From a virus, in the UHGV virus genome UHGV-1602873: a stretch of DNA of 19,421 nucleotides. One strand, given 5' to 3'. Each line of letters opens with the position of its first letter. The stretch's first letter is position 1. The notes beneath the pieces were generated by a model. It was not told where the DNA came from. It was given only the letters and a program-made list of their open reading frames with translations, and made no database searches. Position numbers and translations under genes: made by a program. Below are positions 1,007 through 15,600 of this stretch, in pieces.

Positions 1007-2047
1007 TTAGCCAATGCGAACGGTAACAAAACGATTGATGCGGGCCGGTATTGGCTGTGGTGCTGAATGTGTCTGCACATATTCAATAGCCGGATCACCA
1101 GGCACAATATAGTTTTTCGGTGCAAGTTCGGCTTTAGTCAGCCCCATTCGGATTAGCTCCGGATCCTGAATACCGCCATAGGCGACAATCCCCTGAAGAG
1201 CCGTATTGCCAAGCACCATCAAATCAGGATCAAGGAAATGTTTTTCTGTTCCGTCCTCGTCGGTATAACGCCCGCTGTAAACAACAATCGCAACATCGCC
1301 CATATACCCTTTAAAACTCACCGAATCACCAAGGTCTTTAAGGGCCGTTTCCAGTTCGGAATTAGAACCACGACGGGTATCCAAAGCCTCTTTTATCGCT
1401 CTGAATGAACGGTATTTCTTCCATACATTACCACCCATAATGATGATATTAGTGACGCCCTCACTAAATTCTGCGTAGCTCTCAATATCATCATTTGGAT
1501 CAAAAGTTTCTTTATCCTTACCTGACCACTCAGTACCGCCAGACTGAGTGATGATATTTTGTGGTTTTATATTCCAGTCCAGCTCATAACGTTCAATACC
1601 ATCGCCCTCAATGATATTTTTCCCCGTTGTGATTGCCTGAACAGCAAGCCATTCAATACGTGCACGAATAGCTTTAGCCTGATTTACAATCGCCTGTTTA
1701 ACTTTAATATTACGCGCCCCAAAAGCATTGTATTGCTCAGGTGACACACCAGCAGGGCGCACAGCTAACTTATTTGGATCAATGCTGCTTTTCGGCTTCA
1801 TATAGCCTGGACGAATTGTTTTTGATTCGTACCCTTCGTCACGTGAAACTTTACTACCCACCATAGGAGAACAAAACGCTGCAATTGGGATATTTGGATC
1901 GTCGATTGTATCAAGAATAATATCGCGCGATTCAAACATTACCGAGCGAGTAAAAAACAAACTGGTAAACAACGCATTTAGTTGTTTTTGTACATCTACA
2001 GCATTAACTACCTGTACAAGCTGAGTAGGCGAATATAAATCAACCAT
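1007..2047 (-). CDS. Major capsid protein, lambda gpE family (346 aa from MVDLY start)
   Basis: Full-length homology to lambda E, strongest centrally (ITQSGGTEWS, DTRRGSNSELETA, GDVAIVVYSG, VLGNT); AAGAGGA SD upstream of ATG at 2047; the 71-codon N-terminal extension of the raw ORF is not used. Confidence 0.9.
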   Translation of the reverse strand: MVDLYSPTQLVQVVNAVDVQKQLNALFTSLFFTRSVMFESRDIILDTIDDPNIPIAAFCSPMVGSKVSRDEGYESKTIRPGYMKPKSSIDPNKLAVRPAGVSPEQYNAFGARNIKVKQAIVNQAKAIRARIEWLAVQAITTGKNIIEGDGIERYELDWNIKPQNIITQSGGTEWSGKDKETFDPNDDIESYAEFSEGVTNIIIMGGNVWKKYRSFRAIKEALDTRRGSNSELETALKDLGDSVSFKGYMGDVAIVVYSGRYTDEDGTEKHFLDPDLMVLGNTALQGIVAYGGIQDPELIRMGLTKAELAPKNYIVPGDPAIEYVQTHSAPQPIPARINRFVTVRIG

Positions 2048-2221
2048 ACGCATCCTCTTTGCATTCATTAAAAATAATTGTGGATATATGCTATCACCGA
2101 TATTTGTCATGCGAACACATGCAACCGAGTGCAATGTTGTATAAAGTTTTGGGGTGACAACTTCAGTGCGGACAATTAGTGTTAATATCTTCACTCCCTT
2201 TGGTCGGGATTTATGTAGCAT

Positions 2222-2252
2222 GCCGGAAAATTTATTTTTTCCGGCTTTTTTT
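2222..2252 (+). terminator. Intrinsic terminator oriented on the plus strand
   Basis: Perfect stem gccggaaaa/ttttccggc (2222-2245) with 6-nt loop, followed by ttttttt (2246-2252). The U-tract follows the hairpin only in the plus direction, antisense to the flanking genes. Confidence 0.6.
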
Positions 2253-2263
2253 ATTGGCAATAT

Positions 2264-2713
2264 TTAAAACGGGATATCATCTCCCCATTGCTCATTATCT
2301 CCCTCTGGTGGCTGGCTTCCTTGCTGATCTGCCTGTTGTTTTGCTCTGTTCAGTGCGTCAGTAGCCTGCCCCTGTTGGCCTTTTTTGCCGCCCGGTCGCA
2401 CCGATCGCGCACTGATTACGCTGTCTGCGATAACCTGCCAGCCCTGCCGCGTTTCGCCGTTCTGTCCAGTCCACTGGCTCATCTGCATGTTACCCGCCAC
2501 GCTCAGGAGTTCGCCTTTGTGATGCTTTGCCAGCGCGTCGGCTTGTCTGCCAAACGCCAGGACAGATAACCACAACGTCGCCAGACCGTCATCCGACTGA
2601 CTGCAGGGCAGTGATACCGCCATACGCGCCAGCGTCATGGGGGTGCCCTTGCTGGTCTGTTTTGTCTGCGGGTCGTCCACCAACCGCCCGTAAACTGATA
2701 TTTGCGCCGTCAT
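2264..2713 (-). CDS. ssb: Single-stranded DNA-binding protein (SSB)
   Basis: OB-fold-like N-terminus (ISVYGRLVDDPQ..., LSVLAFGRQADALAKHHKGELLSVAGNMQMSQWTGQNGETR), Gly/Gln-rich linker and C-terminal acidic tip ending DDIPF, as in E. coli SSB. Confidence 0.8.
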   Translation of the reverse strand: MTAQISVYGRLVDDPQTKQTSKGTPMTLARMAVSLPCSQSDDGLATLWLSVLAFGRQADALAKHHKGELLSVAGNMQMSQWTGQNGETRQGWQVIADSVISARSVRPGGKKGQQGQATDALNRAKQQADQQGSQPPEGDNEQWGDDIPF

Positions 2714-2967
2714 GCTGCCTGCTCTCCGGACTTAATATTGATTGTTGTCACTTCCTCCGCTTCAGCAATCTCCCGTTCGGTCAGCGTGGCAAAGTTTGCA
2801 GCCGCCGTTGTCATGAATGCGCTTATCAGTTCGGGATGTGCTTTCGCGTATCCTTCCCCGGCGTTGCGGTCTATTGCCTTAATCGCCACCCTTAGCCAGT
2901 GTTCAGCCATATCAAGGGCGCGGTAATGTGGCTTTATATGTTTGTTCAGTTTTCCTGATGTGTGCAT
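2710..2967 (-). CDS. Hypothetical small protein (85 aa; possible internal start giving ~66 aa)
   Basis: ORF overlapping the ssb start by 4 nt (coupled); no recognisable motif. Confidence 0.45.
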   Translation of the reverse strand: MHTSGKLNKHIKPHYRALDMAEHWLRVAIKAIDRNAGEGYAKAHPELISAFMTTAAANFATLTEREIAEAEEVTTINIKSGEQAA

Positions 2968-3012
2968 TTTTATTTTTACCCCCTCGTTTAAAAAGTTTTT
3001 TGTGCACCACCA

Positions 3013-3245
3013 CCTTGTCTACCTTGTCTACCTGATTAGTTATCAGGCCAGTAATGGCGCGGGTTTCAGGGAGGTAGACAGCCCCAAATAGCTGTCTACC
3101 TCATCTCTACCCGTCTCCTTACCTGTCTACAAAAATGGGTAGATAAGGTAGATAACAGGTAGACAGTGAAAAATAGTTATCTACCTGCATTAATACATTG
3201 AAATAAAAGTATTTTCTTTCAGTCAGGTAGACAAGGTAGATAACC
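3013..3245. repeat. Iteron array, putative replication origin
   Basis: At least 10 copies of GGTAGA(C/T)A(A/G) in both orientations: tandem ttgtctacc x2 (3015-3032); 12-bp perfect inverted repeat gaggtagacagc/gctgtctacctc (3071-3082, 3091-3102); ggtagataa x2 (3138-3155); caggtagacag (3157-3167); caggtagacaaggtagataacc (3224-3245); AT-rich stretch 3189-3222. Lies immediately 3' of the primase-helicase gene. Confidence 0.65.
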
Positions 3246-3256
3246 ATTGCCATTTT

Positions 3257-5008
3257 TTATAAAAACGCATCGCAATCATCAGTAGTCGTTGCGTTGGTCT
3301 GCGTGACTCCCTTAACTTTTCGCGTAATATATTCATATCCGTAAACTTTCGCCGCTGACCTCATAGCCTTTCCGAACTCATTCACGCTCAAACATTTCCC
3401 CTTTCCTGTGTATGCCATGAAGGCCATATAGACACGGTAAAGGCTGTTTCTGGTCGTGTACTTCACGGTGTCACCACCACCGCCCATCATTAGCCCACGA
3501 GCTTCCTCCAGAAACTCCAGCGCCGCGCAAAGCTCAACAACCGGATCCGTTTGCTGCTTTATTGCCAGAGCTTCATCACCGTCACGCTGTTCCAGTAATA
3601 AAGCCCGTGCCTTTTCAGGGTCAGCAAAATTAGCCAGCAAGCGGCGGATAATTACGGGGATTTCTGCCGCTATCTTTTCCGGTAATTCCTTGTCTTTTTC
3701 GTCCTCCCTTACAATGTTGTCGAACCGGAAAATCACCCGACGGCGTGACACACCTCCGGCCCGTTCGGTAAAGATCATCGGGTCGTTATTGGTTGCCAGT
3801 ACCACCGCTCTTATTATCGTCGTGAATCGCTTCTCATATTTCGGGTTAATTTCAACGGGATCGCCTCCCGTGATTTTCTTGATGCCCGTGCCTTCCCCCG
3901 TATATTTCGGCTGATCGGCAAGGACGATAAGACGACTCCCGACAACCTGCGCGCGCCCTCCTGCATCATCGAGTGATGTCATCTCCGCGCTTACGGTGTT
4001 CTGTTTGCCAGCAAGCAGGGTGGCAATATGGGTAAATGTACTCTTACCGCTTCCCCCGTCTCCGGTGGCCTCAATGAACATCTGCCAGTCGTAGCGGTTC
4101 GCCATAATCATGTATAACGCGGCACATATACGCATCATCTTGCGCGGGTCTTTTCTTGCAGCATGTTCAAGCCATTTATGGAAATTTGGCGCATTATCGC
4201 GGATGTTTTCCCCTGCTACTGGTGGCGTGTACTCAATGCCATTGTGCGTGGTGCTCCAGTGCTCCGGCGAGTGCGGAGAAAATTCCCCCGTTTTCAGGTT
4301 AAGCACACCATTAGTGAACGGTAGCAAATCACCGGACGGCTCCCCCATGGGGTCGGCAATAACTTTTAACGCTTCCACGGCGTTATTGATTACACGTTTG
4401 CTGAACGTGGCCCTGTGCTCTGAATAGATCGCCACCATTTCGCGGCTCAGCTCCATTGTGCTGACCGGACACCATACCCCGCCGCGCCATACGTGGACGA
4501 TTTCACTTTCTGCATGAACACACACACCATCAAAGCGATCGGCAAGTAGTTGTGCACGTTCACTGTCTGCCATCTGTGAAAGTTGCGCCTTTTGCTTCGT
4601 CGGAAGATTAAGCACCAGACTTTCCCCACGCTCGCATTCCTCTTTGAGTCGCGGCAACTGCTCGGATAAATCCACTGGGCTGGTGTCAGTAATCCCCGCG
4701 TATTCGTGTACGGTCTTCACTCCAGCCACAGCCAGTAACGTAACAATCTGCGTCATGCTGTGCTCTGTGATATGTCCTGCGCGGTAAACACGCACACACT
4801 GACGATCTTCATCAATGATCCGGTAATCGGTGATATTTTTCAGTTGCTCATCAGCCAGCACGACAGGCGGCACATCGTCAGCGGCAATATGTTTACCCGC
4901 CCATTCCCGCCACTCTTTCGCATGGCTCCACGCATCACTACCTGCAAAGATGATTACCTCTGTCAGTCTGTCGCGTGGCTGTTTTTTTAAGTTCGGTGCC
5001 AGTTTCAT
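3257..5008 (-). CDS. Replication initiation primase/helicase (phage/plasmid primase, D5/P4-alpha NTPase family), 583 aa
   Basis: Walker A GDGGSGKST, downstream hydrophobic-D motif (LIVLAD); size and position after int-alpA as in P4-like and PICI elements; SD AGGGG upstream of ATG at 5008. Confidence 0.85.
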   Translation of the reverse strand: MKLAPNLKKQPRDRLTEVIIFAGSDAWSHAKEWREWAGKHIAADDVPPVVLADEQLKNITDYRIIDEDRQCVRVYRAGHITEHSMTQIVTLLAVAGVKTVHEYAGITDTSPVDLSEQLPRLKEECERGESLVLNLPTKQKAQLSQMADSERAQLLADRFDGVCVHAESEIVHVWRGGVWCPVSTMELSREMVAIYSEHRATFSKRVINNAVEALKVIADPMGEPSGDLLPFTNGVLNLKTGEFSPHSPEHWSTTHNGIEYTPPVAGENIRDNAPNFHKWLEHAARKDPRKMMRICAALYMIMANRYDWQMFIEATGDGGSGKSTFTHIATLLAGKQNTVSAEMTSLDDAGGRAQVVGSRLIVLADQPKYTGEGTGIKKITGGDPVEINPKYEKRFTTIIRAVVLATNNDPMIFTERAGGVSRRRVIFRFDNIVREDEKDKELPEKIAAEIPVIIRRLLANFADPEKARALLLEQRDGDEALAIKQQTDPVVELCAALEFLEEARGLMMGGGGDTVKYTTRNSLYRVYMAFMAYTGKGKCLSVNEFGKAMRSAAKVYGYEYITRKVKGVTQTNATTTDDCDAFL

Positions 5009-5735: not shown

Positions 5736-5920
5736 TAATGCACCTCTTTTAATTCATACACTGCTGAAATAATGACTTGTGATAAGCCATATTCTGATGA
5801 TTCGCTTCTCACCGCAGCAATAGCCGTCTGAACATTAACAGCCTTCACATTCTGAGCGATACCAATTGTGTGGCCTATTGGGTTAACAGCTCGGGCAAAT
5901 ACACGGAAGGTTTTAAGCAT
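5735..5920 (-). CDS. Hypothetical small protein (61 aa), first gene of the operon leading to the primase
   Basis: GGGAG SD 6 nt upstream of ATG; competes with a plus-strand ORF starting at 5919, so the call is tentative. Confidence 0.4.
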   Translation of the reverse strand: MLKTFRVFARAVNPIGHTIGIAQNVKAVNVQTAIAAVRSESSEYGLSQVIISAVYELKEVH

Positions 5921-6201
5921 GACTCACTCCCTGGCGGATTTTTGCAGCGAATACAGCAACACAACCGGACGGGCAACGGCTACGCGCTTCGCGTTCCGTC
6001 CAGGCGGTTACGTGGATGATTTGAGATTCTCCGGCACTCAGTGCCAGAAAACGCCACACAAAGGCCGTTTGTGTGTGTACAAGGTGTGGTATATGATTTA
6101 CAGCAACCATAACGGCTCCTAGTTTACGTTGTTGGTTAGACGCCCCGTATGTGTTCCCAGCACTGCGGGGCGTTGCTCTTTGTATTTCAACAATCCTTTC
6201 G

Positions 6202-6279
6202 GTGTGTTTCATGTTATGAGCGCATGAAACACACGTCAAGGCTTTTTGTATTTCTTTTTTTGTGTATACTGAAACACAC
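6202..6279. promoter_or_regulatory. Operator-like repeats overlapping a leftward sigma70-like promoter in a divergent control region
   Basis: 12-bp perfect inverted repeat gtgtgtttcatg/catgaaacacac (6202-6213, 6223-6234) plus a third copy gaaacacac (6271-6279). On the minus strand, TTGACG (6234-6239), 17-bp spacer, TAACAT (6211-6216) form a promoter whose -10 and spacer sit inside the repeats. Confidence 0.5.
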
Positions 6280-6300
6280 CGATGATTAGGAGTTTCAGAA

Positions 6301-6606
6301 ATGGCAACGGCTAACAAAAACGCAAAATCACAACTGACAACTGTCAGAGTCCCACTAGATGTTATGCAAGGGATGGAATCCGTTAAGCTGGACGGTGAAA
6401 GCAATGCCGGATTTATCGTAACCGCCATGCGCGGTGAAATCGCCCGCCGCCAGGCAGAAGGAAGCGGAGAAAATCCCCTCGTGTCTTCACTGGATGCCTT
6501 AGCTAAGGTCGAACAAATCGGTATCAAGGCAGCGGAGGAAATCGGGCAACTCGTAGCCGTCGCTCGTGAAGAACTCCAGCGGCGTAAAGCCAAAGAATCT
6601 GAATAA
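6301..6606 (+). CDS. Hypothetical protein, candidate regulator (101 aa)
   Basis: AGGAG SD 8 nt upstream; charged helical C-terminus; transcribed divergently from the small-gene/primase operon, next to the operator repeats. Function not recognised. Confidence 0.6.
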   Translation: MATANKNAKSQLTTVRVPLDVMQGMESVKLDGESNAGFIVTAMRGEIARRQAEGSGENPLVSSLDALAKVEQIGIKAAEEIGQLVAVAREELQRRKAKESE

Positions 6607-6956
6607 TTAGTATCAGCGCCGTGATGTGAGTAACTACGGCGCATTGCTATGTAAATACTGGCAATAAACAGAAAAGGTAGTTCTACTCCGAATAATTTTA
6701 TCTGACACTACTCCTGAACTAACATGCGCTTATCTTACAGGATATAAATATAAATCCATAAAATCACGATTAAATAAAGTCGCTCCAAACATAAACCACA
6801 CCCAACGCTTAACAAGATAGCAACAAACAGGTAAATAACTTGCAGAAATATTTATCGCAAGGATTATCATTATTAATGACAAATCACTTTACCAAGTCAT
6901 TCCCCTCTCTTATCATAAAGAGAAAGTAATAAATAAGTTAAGGGAGTTAGAATGCT

Positions 6957-7562: not shown

Positions 7563-7799
7563 TTAAACTACCCACTCACCTCGAATCCATGCCTGCACTT
7601 CTGAAAGACGATATGCAACAGCAGTGGAACCAATCTTGATCCGCTTAGGAAATTTTCCTTCCTTCTCCAGCTTCCAGCGTGTGCTGTTCGCAAGAGTGGT
7701 TAGCTCCCGACATTCTTTCTCACGGATCATTCGGTCAATGTTAGGAATGTACTCCAGACCCTTTTTATCAACAATTGCCATTTTTTTCATGTTAACCAA
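7563..7799 (-). CDS. alpA: AlpA-family transcriptional regulator/excisionase-like protein (78 aa)
   Basis: Signature LEYIPNIDRMIREKECRELTTLANSTRWKLEKEGKFPKRIKIGSTAVAYRLSEVQAWI; overlaps the integrase stop by 8 nt. Confidence 0.85.
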   Translation of the reverse strand: MVNMKKMAIVDKKGLEYIPNIDRMIREKECRELTTLANSTRWKLEKEGKFPKRIKIGSTAVAYRLSEVQAWIRGEWVV

Positions 7800-9027
7800 C
7801 CTTTTGTTTGAGGATTGTCACTTTTGAATCAGCACCTGCGATGCTATTGAGATATGTAGTCCAGAGTTCCAGAGCATCCAGTTTTTTAGCCATAAACTTA
7901 CTCCGGTTGTAAACACCTGCCACGCCAGGTAGCGCATGGCCTAACAGTTGTTCTACTACATAAAATTCAACACCGAGATCACTTAGATGAGTAGATAGCG
8001 TTCTTCTAAGGTCGTGTAGTGACCATTGTTTTTCATGGCCCAAACGTTTACCGATTTTCCCCCCAATCTTGCTTACGCTTTCTCTAATTCGCAGACTTCC
8101 CAGCACATAACCAGTATGTTTTGTCTCTTCGTGAACATCCGTTACCCACTGTCGTAGAATTTCAGGTACTGGTCTGACGATTTCAACACCAGTTTTTGAG
8201 TGATCTTTTGGTACAGTCCAAACCCAACTTTCGAGATCCCATTCGCTCCATTCTGATAATCGGGCTTCACTCATTCGACATCCAAATACTGTACAAAGCA
8301 CAAACATTTTTCGCGTGTATTCAGACATTAGTTTTAAATCAGGCTCGACAAAAATTGCCTTCCAGAGCTGGCCGAGTTCGGCTTCATCCAGAACCCGATC
8401 CCGCTTACCTGCAATCTGCCCCACATCACTCATGCGCAAATCCTTTAAAGCATCACACGTCGCGTACTGGCGTACCCGACAAAAACGAAGAGCTAATTTA
8501 GTGTCAGAAAAAACATACGCCGCCATAACTGGTGCATTACGTTTAATTCGGTCAAAACAGTCCAGCCATTCATATAGGTGAGTGTCATTTACGGGCAAAT
8601 GACCGATATAGGGAAAGATATGCTTTCGAAATCTGCCAAGCGTTACAGCATGAGTTTTACGACGCACCTTACAGTAATTTTCATACCAGTAATTTAGTGC
8701 ATCCTCCACTGTAACCGGCTTTAAGCGTTCTTCAGCCTGAATCTTAATCTGGATACGCGGATCACGTTTGTCAGCCAACCAACCACGGCACTCGTCGCGC
8801 TTTTCCCTTGCCTGTTTGAGTGACATATCAGGATATTTACCCAACGTTAGCCAGACCGGAGCAGCCCGGCCACCTGCTAACCTGTAGAAGAAAACAAAGC
8901 TCACAGCCCCTTTAGTACTCACACGAATAGAAAGCCCCTTTCCATCAGCAATGGTGATCTGCTTTTCTCTGGGTTTCCCCAGATATCCTTTAAGCGCTTT
9001 GTCGCTCAGTTTGTTCTCGCCAGCCAT
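7792..9027 (-). CDS. int: Tyrosine site-specific integrase, P4 family (start chosen at MAGENK; raw ORF extends to 9078)
   Basis: N-terminal arm-binding-like region (KALKGYLGKPREKQITIADGKGLSIRVS...), catalytic box HDLRRT and C-terminal tyrosine in GVAGVYNRS. Confidence 0.9.
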   Translation of the reverse strand: MAGENKLSDKALKGYLGKPREKQITIADGKGLSIRVSTKGAVSFVFFYRLAGGRAAPVWLTLGKYPDMSLKQAREKRDECRGWLADKRDPRIQIKIQAEERLKPVTVEDALNYWYENYCKVRRKTHAVTLGRFRKHIFPYIGHLPVNDTHLYEWLDCFDRIKRNAPVMAAYVFSDTKLALRFCRVRQYATCDALKDLRMSDVGQIAGKRDRVLDEAELGQLWKAIFVEPDLKLMSEYTRKMFVLCTVFGCRMSEARLSEWSEWDLESWVWTVPKDHSKTGVEIVRPVPEILRQWVTDVHEETKHTGYVLGSLRIRESVSKIGGKIGKRLGHEKQWSLHDLRRTLSTHLSDLGVEFYVVEQLLGHALPGVAGVYNRSKFMAKKLDALELWTTYLNSIAGADSKVTILKQKVG

Positions 9028-9159
9028 TTTTAGCCCCAAAAAGCAATACAAGCTGCAATACAGAGATGATTGCAACACACAGATAACGAGGAAAATTCAG
9101 TGAAAGCACCAGATAAACTTATTCTTTATTATCAAAAGATTAAGTGTAAAAACCAGCAA

Positions 9160-9435
9160 CTACACGAAAGCCTCAGAAAGCCATGCTAAGTGCTTGGGTT
9201 TGACATATCCCGGCGTAAATTCAGAGGTGGAGCCGCCACGGGAACGGATAACCTCACCGGAAACAATCGGCGAAACGTACAGCGCCATGTTTACCAGTCC
9301 CGGAATTTGTGAGAGATAGACTTTCTCCGTGGTGAAGGGATAGCTCTCACGGAAAAAGAGACGCAGAAACAGCGGATCAAACTTAAATTTCTGCTCATTT
9401 GCCGCCAGCAGCTGGGCGGTTGTGTACATCGACAT
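9160..9435 (-). pseudogene. E: Truncated lambda-type major capsid gene E (first ~82 codons, then 9 unrelated codons and a stop)
   Basis: MSMYTTAQLLAANEQKFKFDPLFLRLFF...TPGYVKPKH matches the lambda gpE N-terminus as recalled; the frame then reads LAWLSEAFV-stop at ~9190-9160, next to the integrase gene. Confidence 0.85.
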
Positions 9436-9440
9436 AAAAA

Positions 9441-9480
9441 AATCCCGTAAAAAAAGCCGCACAGGCGGCCTTTAGTGATG
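9441..9480 (-). terminator. GC hairpin plus U-tract in the D-E intergenic region (attenuator/terminator-like)
   Basis: On the minus strand: GCCGCC-TGT-GCGGC followed by TTTTTTT between the gpD stop and the E start. Confidence 0.35.
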
Positions 9481-15379: not shown

Positions 15380-15600
15380 TGTTCATTCCACGGACAAAAA
15401 CAGAGAAAGGAAACGACAGAGGCCAAAAAGCTCGCTTTCAGCACCTGTCGCTTCCTTTCTTTTCAGAGGGTATTTTAAATAAAAACATTAAGTTATGACG
15501 AAGAAGAACGGAAACGCCTTAAACCGGAAAATTTTCATAAATAGCGAAAACCCGCGAGGTCGCCGCCCCGTAACCTGTCGGATCGCCGGAAAGGACCCGC
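15380..15600. other. Lambda-type cos site (cos1): cosB, cosN with the 12-nt cohesive-end sequence at 15557-15568, cosQ-side flank
   Basis: Reverse complement of 15544-15578 reads ACAGGTTACG-GGGCGGCGACCT-CGCGGGTTTTCGC, i.e. lambda right end, cohesive end and left end joined. Confidence 0.85.

Follow-up and report, generated by a model that had tools for sequence, protein, structure and literature searches.

The question raised by the stretch of DNA analysed here, 19,421 nucleotides of the virus genome UHGV-1602873 (the whole of which is referred to as the window), is what a dense cluster of short repeats, or iterons, is doing immediately beyond the stop codon of a gene annotated as encoding a 'DNA primase family protein' (3257–5008, minus strand; 583 aa). 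An earlier examination of the letters alone, which we refer to as the sequence-only reading, had proposed an iteron-type replication origin just 3' of an island's own initiator gene and bound by the C-terminal domain of the initiator, and this proposal is supported by homology to the EcCICFT073 origin and to the P4 alpha structure 1ka8, by conservation of the iteron cores, and by the exchange of cassettes between islands. We consider that the 229-bp array at 3015–3243 is very probably the one site at which a phage-inducible chromosomal island (PICI) starts its replication, with a P4-alpha-like superfamily 3 (SF3) helicase as its predicted initiator encoded immediately upstream on the minus strand.

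We read the array in this way because ten exact sites fall in one cluster where 0.26 would be expected, both in the window and in a whole island; because the array is homologous to the corresponding region of a replication-competent pri-rep–ori segment of EcCICFT073; and because the C-terminal domain of the 583-aa protein is homologous to 1ka8 and its ATPase region to PriRep of the Staphylococcus aureus pathogenicity island (SaPI) SaPI5. It is further favoured because the iteron cores are conserved while the spacers drift, because relatives whose C-terminal domains differ have other iterons set out in this 12-site layout, and because the helicase and C-terminal part of the initiator has been exchanged together with the iterons between near-identical islands.

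Iteron sites and their layout

The iteron GGTAGAYAR was found as an exact match ten times on the two strands of the window and every time inside 3015–3243, compared with a maximum of three in dinucleotide-preserving shuffles (mean 0.26), and matches with one mismatch outside the array were dispersed singles at about the chance level. Confinement to a single cluster was seen again in a 36-kb locus from another strain which includes the entire island. The claim that more than ten copies of GGTAGA(C/T)A(A/G) are present was correct in that the cluster is real, but ten is the exact number and it is exceeded only when two degenerate copies are counted, giving a total of 12 sites. The array begins 13 nt past the stop codon of the 583-aa open reading frame (ORF) and occupies most of the 289-bp intergenic region (2968–3256) between this stop and the start of an 85-aa ORF.

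Across the array the sites are oriented - - + - - - + + + - + + with centre-to-centre spacings of 9, 46, 22, 11, 20, 12, 9, 11, 22, 46 and 9 bp, most of which are close to one or two helical turns, and they form a near-perfect dyad, a feature absent from the sequence-only reading. The tandem pairs which that reading described were found at 9-bp spacing in three places: an initiator-distal pair at 3015–3032 (3015/3024, minus strand; GGTAGACAA GGTAGACAA), a central pair at 3138–3155 (3138/3147, plus strand; GGTAGATAA GGTAGATAA) and an initiator-proximal pair at 3226–3243 (3226/3235, plus strand; GGTAGACAA GGTAGATAA). The position of the last is kept in all of the related loci and the first is inverted relative to it, with the outer arms at 3015–3035 and 3223–3243 being 95% complementary.

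Motif scanning and a repeat search identified an inverted pair formed by 3158–3166 (plus strand; GGTAGACAG) and 3177–3185 (minus strand; GGTAGATAA), which belongs to a 30-nt unit with a second copy at 3072–3101. Another inverted pair, 3073–3081 (plus strand) and 3092–3100 (minus strand), lies within the arms of what had been called a perfect 12-bp palindrome at 3071–3102; the 12-nt arms (3071–3082 and 3091–3102) are indeed 100% complementary, but they are separated by an 8-nt spacer and this is an inverted repeat rather than a contiguous palindrome. Both of the degenerate iterons are on the minus strand, one at 3103–3111 (GGTAGAGAT) in a position which is also filled in the alignments of EcCICFT073 and of loci L074 and L046, and the other at 3123–3131 (TGTAGACAG) which is less conserved. 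The inverted pairs said to surround an AT-rich stretch were also found, with 3177–3185 (minus) on one side and 3226–3243 (plus, plus) on the other side of a 40-bp gap at 3186–3225 having a GC content of 22.5% (the 60 nt at 3170–3229 have 25% GC compared with about 50% around them).

A blastn search of 50,697 phage records with the array gave no match, and Rfam at the gathering threshold found nothing in the window.

Homology to the EcCICFT073 origin

EcCICFT073, which serves as the model for Gram-negative PICIs, has a module in the same order as the window, in which DUF4222, Pri-Rep (584 aa), a 288-bp intergenic region, an 85-aa gene and the single-stranded DNA-binding protein (SSB) are followed by the capsid and decoration genes. 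Pri-Rep is 80% identical to the window initiator overall and 92–95% identical in the D5_N and helicase parts, and the C-terminal domains share 83% identity but the N-terminal 135 aa only 43% (the C-terminal helix reads LSVNEFGKAM in the window and LNVNDFGKAM in EcCICFT073). The EcCICFT073 intergenic region and the array aligned with 75% identity over 96% of a 303-bp query (blastn), with the aligned iteron cores invariant between the two. They are also alike in having GGTAGAYAR-type iterons, the same site offsets from the stop codon, an AT-rich gap, and GC-rich and other invariant blocks, with the window array having one degenerate site more. The resemblance does not extend to integration, as the integrases of EcCICFT073 and the window share only 45% identity and EcCICFT073 lies between roxA and phoQ, whereas the window island is found inside a prophage capsid gene. 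Homologues of the array were present in 565 of 5,426 complete E. coli genomes searched with blastn and were always chromosomal.

Function has been assigned to the EcCICFT073 region by experiment, since cloning of rep with the putative ori site enabled a temperature-sensitive plasmid to persist when cells were kept at the restrictive temperature (Fillol-Salom et al. 2018, ISME J, PMC6092414), and mutating or deleting either rep or ori lowered plasmid maintenance (PMC6092414). To judge from its sequence, the array is a direct homologue of this tested origin and has every sequence-testable character of a Gram-negative PICI origin: it lies immediately 3' of pri-rep, two sets of short iterons are placed around an AT-rich region (3226–3243 on one side of the gap and 3138–3185 on the other), and it is homologous to the EcCICFT073 region.

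The array also sits within a string of co-oriented genes and, as no terminator-like site was found in a scan of 2600–3600, it may be transcribed through. This position would suit an alternative in which the main role of the array, with the initiator or another regulator bound to it, is that of a transcriptional operator or autoregulatory region which controls read-through from the replication genes into the 85-aa/SSB/capsid operon, and not that of an initiation site; a second use of the iterons, in copy control or autoregulation, is common in iteron plasmids. We regard this alternative as very unlikely, as no sigma-70-like promoter was seen in the same scan, inverted sites on either side of an AT-rich gap are characteristic of origins and not of operators, none of the island's other helix-turn-helix (HTH) proteins follows the iteron type, and maintenance of the plasmid depends on the homologous region in EcCICFT073 (PMC6092414). 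A secondary role for the array in regulation or copy control is possible alongside its probable function as an origin.

The initiator protein

The Pfam domains recognised in the 583-aa protein are D5_N (residues 152–281), DUF5906/SF3 helicase (315–416) and a weak match to the Pox_D5 C-terminal domain (517–575). Over 443 aa the protein is 41% identical to residues 321–762 of P4 alpha. Matches were also obtained for its ATPase region, to SaPI5 PriRep (7ola; E = 5e-15), and for its last ~95 residues, to the origin-binding domain of P4 alpha (PDB 1ka8; E = 2e-8 by phmmer). No primase domain was recognised in this protein, with Zn-ribbon, Toprim and archaeo-eukaryotic primase (AEP) domains not found (P4 alpha has PF08273 plus PF13362/PF01751). 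The description of the gene as a primase-helicase in the sequence-only reading was not upheld, as there is no recognisable primase domain and the alignment covers only the 321–762 part of P4 alpha; 'primase-helicase' appears to be an annotation label and not a supported activity, and initiator-helicase would be the better term.

We presume that the C-terminal domain (residues 481–583; 3260–3568, minus strand) is a winged-helix origin-binding domain on the basis of homology to 1ka8. The model of this domain has a helix-helix-helix-strand-strand order at low confidence (predicted local distance difference test, pLDDT, of 56), and predicted helix 3 corresponds to residues 542–555 and includes the class-specific residues N543 and G546. 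The N-terminal domain (codons 1–135; 4604–5008, minus strand) is the most variable part of the protein and of alpha/beta type, and residues 1–125 were modelled confidently by AlphaFold as a generic, flavodoxin-like alpha/beta fold, although the rest of the full-length model was poor (pLDDT 46). A Foldseek search of the PDB with the full-length model gave no significant match for the N-terminal fold.

Iteron classes and exchange of the replication cassette

We compared the array with those of 83 loci encoding relatives of the initiator plus E. coli RM14723, CFT073, NRG857c and P4 (the scan of viral contigs was the productive source of these loci, as scanning genome contigs with the initiator gave only three). 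The 12-site layout was kept across this set and the iteron sequence was lineage-dependent. GGTAGAYAR is the iteron of the window class and of the EcCICFT073 class, GGTAGAGG and GGTAGAAG are those of two other E. coli classes, Serratia has CTGTTCAC and Morganella ATGAACA, and the iteron of the helper-embedded PICI Eco567.11capE of E. coli NRG857c (referred to as 11capE) is CTGTTCACC; the P4 type I repeat is TGTTCACC (P4-type TGTTCAC). Amongst 50 distinct E. coli sequences the columns of the GGTAGA core had an entropy of 0.26 bits compared with 0.69 bits for the spacers (Mann-Whitney p = 5e-9), and the most variable positions were the 3-nt flanks of the iterons with 1.10 bits. This is the pattern expected of a conserved binding core with flanks that would determine specificity.

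The flanks may be read by the C-terminal domain through the start of its predicted helix 3. There, the sequence VN(E/D)FGKAM was in 77 of 78 loci paired with GTAGA-YAR iterons and VA(E/D)FSKAM with GTAGA-NGR (the differences being at residues 543 and 546), and it is suggestive that these residues track the type of iteron flank.

Two of the loci, L029 and L030, are 97–100% identical to the window upstream of a point ~1.2 kb before the initiator stop and again past the end of the array, and between these points the helicase is 75–93% identical and the iteron region ~55%. The window initiator is itself a mosaic, in which the N-terminal 135 aa are 64% identical to 11capE and 43% to EcCICFT073 while the rest is 83–95% identical to EcCICFT073, and the N-terminal domain goes with the island backbone and not with the helicase–origin cassette. 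In the L029 and L030, 11capE and mosaic initiator comparisons, the iterons travel with the helicase and C-terminal part of the initiator and with nothing else.

Three other products of the island were considered as binders of the iterons and rejected, each being either unchanged in an island with other iterons or missing from one having the same iterons. The 127-aa HTH protein is 100% identical in 11capE despite the different iterons there, the Icd-like C-terminal part of the 243-aa ORF (a transcriptional repressor according to PHROGs) is identical in L029, and DUF4222 is identical in L030.

A wider interpretation is that the helicase, origin-binding domain and array form a horizontally exchangeable 'replicon specificity cassette' which would extend from the linker (around residue 135) to the last iteron, with at least three orthogonal cassettes (GGTAGAYAR, GGTAGAGG and P4-type TGTTCACC) carried on one helper-embedded PICI backbone. 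In this interpretation specificity would come partly from N543/G546 versus A/S reading the 3-nt flank, and the N-terminal domain and a GC-rich block at 3046–3069 might together serve as the connection with a priming or loading factor of the host or of the helper. We offer this tentatively and think it rather doubtful in its entirety, and, if it is true, such cassettes would let several PICIs and the helper replicate in one cell without cross-talk.

The AT-rich gap, the GC-rich block and the edge of the cassette

The AT-rich gap at 3186–3225 is presumed to be the DNA unwinding element of the origin, and a gap of this sort is found at the matching place in every relative. Melting is assigned to such an AT-rich gap in the published model of Gram-negative PICI and SaPI origins (PMC6092414, PMC9371898).

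Its dyad counterpart is the initiator-distal 46-bp gap, which holds an invariant GC-rich block without iterons at 3046–3069 (CTGAAACCCGCGCCATTACTGGCC, minus strand). Column entropy in the block was near zero in the 50 distinct sequences, so that it is as conserved as the iteron cores across the E. coli classes, and it was kept in the alignment of five classes, but the P4-type origin of 11capE is without it and has two AT-rich gaps instead. A hairpin (GCCA/TGGC) within the block was considered and rejected, as no compensating change accompanies the TGAC of the G-type classes or the GTCA of L074.

A further conserved block at 2968–2996 (AAAACTTTTTAAACGAGGGGGTAAAAATAAAA, minus strand) contains the ribosome-binding site of the next gene and was invariant in the alignment. 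It forms the right-hand edge of the exchangeable initiator–origin cassette, and the recombination breakpoints of L029 and L030 fall there.

Proposed mechanism and points against it

For the window array we infer a sequence of events in which the C-terminal domain would bind the 9–10-bp iterons (AGGTAGAYAR), with the 12 sites acting as two roughly dyad-related halves, and the bound initiator would then oligomerise and melt the AT-rich gap. The initiator might next load itself to act as a hexameric helicase, in the way described for the Rep proteins of SaPIs (PMC9371898), and, because no primase domain is recognisable, primers would probably come from host DnaG or from some activity of the N-terminal domain. 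These steps have counterparts amongst the homologues, in which a cloned pri-rep–ori segment is replication-competent (PMC6092414) and SaPI Rep binds iterons and melts the origin (PMC9371898). If correct, replication of the island is tied to its own initiator, and the cis site to be used in building or disabling replicons has been marked.

Several observations weigh against the origin reading or against parts of it. Deletion of the EcCICFT073 ori lowered colony formation but did not abolish it (PMC6092414). Besides the primase domain undetected in the initiator, consensus scans of the array showed no enrichment of DnaA boxes or of integration host factor (IHF) sites, and the model of the C-terminal domain (pLDDT 56) gave no fold match. 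The origin model also leaves unaccounted for the invariant GC-rich block which lies inside the array. Finally, the link between helix 3 and the iteron flanks, suggestive as it is, comes from few independent lineages and has one exception, L049 (IMG/VR uncultivated virus genome 3300029303_000153), in which an A/S-type helix (NVAEFSKAM) and a C-terminal tail of the other class are found together with A-type GGTAGAYAR iterons. L049 seems to have arisen by recombination inside the last ~30 codons and, provided that it works, specificity must depend on more than residues 543 and 546. Taken against the evidence set out above, these points leave the array as very probably the origin of the island.

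The island and its host prophage

The minus strand of the window is made up of the late region of a lambdoid prophage and the island interrupting it. The prophage late region (minus strand) includes the lysis genes, cosN, Nu1, A, W, the portal, protease/scaffold and decoration protein D genes, and the start of the capsid gene E, the first ~90 codons of which (9160–9462, minus strand) adjoin the island integrase. The island spans the window from position 1 to ~9190 and is co-oriented with the prophage late operon. All of the following are on the minus strand: the integrase at the island end (7792–9078), AlpA next to it (7563–7799; identified by Pfam), the 85-aa protein downstream of the array (2710–2967; phrog_1231), SSB in the downstream replication zone (2264–2713), and a second AlpA-like HTH protein, that of 127 aa, after the island decoration gene (261–644). 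Further genes of the island include an Icd-like gene, small ORFs, DUF4222, and its own divergent capsid and decoration genes, the products of which are 33% and 38% identical, respectively, to their prophage counterparts.

We note that two of the ORFs in the window have probably been called too long. In the 243-aa ORF (5913–6644, minus strand) the match to the Icd-like family is confined to the final ~50 residues and the RefSeq gene at this place is 67 aa, while the 417-aa capsid ORF (1007–2260, minus strand) has a TTG start and the RefSeq capsid is 346 aa, leaving a gap of ~217 bp after SSB.

The same array is found in E. coli RM14723 in an island of ~11.4 kb that splits a prophage capsid gene. 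In this otherwise identical island the initiator and integrase genes are frameshifted (L001 18358–20108 and 22576–23810) and the helper prophage is broken by IS3 elements; both genes are intact in the window, and the RM14723 copy is decaying.

The integrase and AlpA at one end, the unidirectional genes, pri-rep and a size of 10–20 kb are those of a Gram-negative PICI. The position inside the major capsid gene of the helper, the co-orientation and the integrase of the 11capE clade are those of a helper-embedded PICI (site E:Phage_cap_E), a configuration that has been published (Tommasini, Mageeney and Williams 2023; PMC10111431), and the replication module is not that of the type element, 11capE. 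On these sequence comparisons we classify the island as a helper-embedded PICI of the 11capE type having an EcCICFT073-type replication cassette, and as a cassette recombinant of the 11capE backbone. While the island is embedded, replication and late transcription of the helper prophage also run through the array.

Repeat arrays in both orientations can also be held by centromere-like and cosB-type sites, and EcCICFT073 transfer relies on cos sites, which brings in the alternative that the array serves in packaging (as cos/pac) or in partition (as a centromere-like site). The sole exact lambda-type cosN in the window (GGGCGGCGACCT; 15557–15568, minus strand) is in the prophage upstream of the Nu1/terminase genes, however, and in the part of the island within the window no cos-like site was found and no ParA/ParB or small-terminase gene was seen. 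As the iterons vary with the C-terminal domain of the initiator and not with the late or packaging genes, we find this alternative barely conceivable and retain the interpretation of the array as an origin.

Comparison with known systems

The island backbone is shared with 11capE, which has an integrase 99.5% identical to that of the window and is likewise inserted in a lambdoid major capsid gene E in the late-gene orientation. The 127-aa HTH protein and decoration protein are 100% identical in the two, the capsid 98% and SSB 95%, and an HTH regulator is annotated in 11capE at the position which AlpA occupies beside the integrase in the window. The gene order of the replication zone (initiator, 85-aa gene, SSB) is common to 11capE, EcCICFT073 and the window. 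In contrast, the 11capE initiator is only 48% identical to that of the window (34% in D5_N, 57% in the helicase and 35% in the C-terminal part), and its origin (L088 25051–25337) has 12 P4-type iterons resembling CTGTTCACC in the window's layout but with an entirely different sequence.

P4 alpha is like the window initiator in having a homologous helicase and origin-binding domain (41% identity; 1ka8), and P4 also has short iterons in both orientations, with 9-bp tandem pairs, immediately 3' of the initiator gene. Binding of P4 alpha to the P4 iterons was reportedly described by Ziegelin and colleagues in 1993 and by Yeo and colleagues in 2002. The two systems differ in that P4 alpha has an N-terminal Zn-ribbon and Toprim primase domain and the window protein has neither, and in that the type I repeat TGTTCACC of P4 is found in two separate cis elements (ori and crr), and the island has one array with a different iteron. 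The array is therefore outside the P4 replicon type in the strict sense, given the missing primase domain, the other iteron and the single cis element.

In the GenBank annotation of P4 the array 3' of alpha is crr and ori lies ~2.1 kb upstream of alpha, so that the sequence-only reading was right to call the arrangement usual for PICIs but not in extending this to P4-like elements. The annotation also raises the alternative that the window array, encoded next to a P4 alpha homologue and resembling crr in its 9-bp-spaced repeats of both orientations, is an accessory cis element with replication starting at a separate ori kilobases away. This is extremely unlikely, as no further cluster of iterons exists in the island or the surrounding 36 kb, the array has an AT-rich gap of its own, unlike crr, and the EcCICFT073 construct with only rep and the putative ori site replicated (PMC6092414).

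Amongst the SaPIs, SaPI5 PriRep is a self-loading helicase, and the iterons bound by its C-terminal winged helix lie just past the 3' end of the gene encoding it (Qiao et al. 2022, PMC9371898). SaPI origins have 6–12 short iterons downstream of rep, two or more of them to either side of an AT-rich centre and pointing in opposite directions (PMC9371898), and in the array, which has 12 sites, the (plus, plus) pair faces 3177–3185 (minus) across the AT-rich gap. The SaPIs belong to a Gram-positive lineage and have 5–6-nt iterons, and the similarity between the initiators is confined to the ATPase core, with SaPI5 PriRep having a putative primase part and the window protein none that is recognisable. 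The array is further removed from plasmids of the pSC101, R6K and RK2 type, which have 17–22-bp direct repeats, a RepA-family initiator, DnaA boxes and often IHF sites, as the window iterons are 9–10 bp, occur in both orientations and are accompanied by an SF3 helicase initiator.

Both the type of origin and the type of island have already been published, and our finding, which is textbook material for PICI specialists, mainly annotates a known system. What is new by comparison is a 'primase' without a primase domain, a dyad layout of 12 sites with one AT-rich and one invariant GC-rich gap, and an initiator and origin which have been swapped as a unit between otherwise identical helper-embedded islands, these swaps providing a natural set of specificity variants for how origin-binding domains of the P4 alpha type read DNA.

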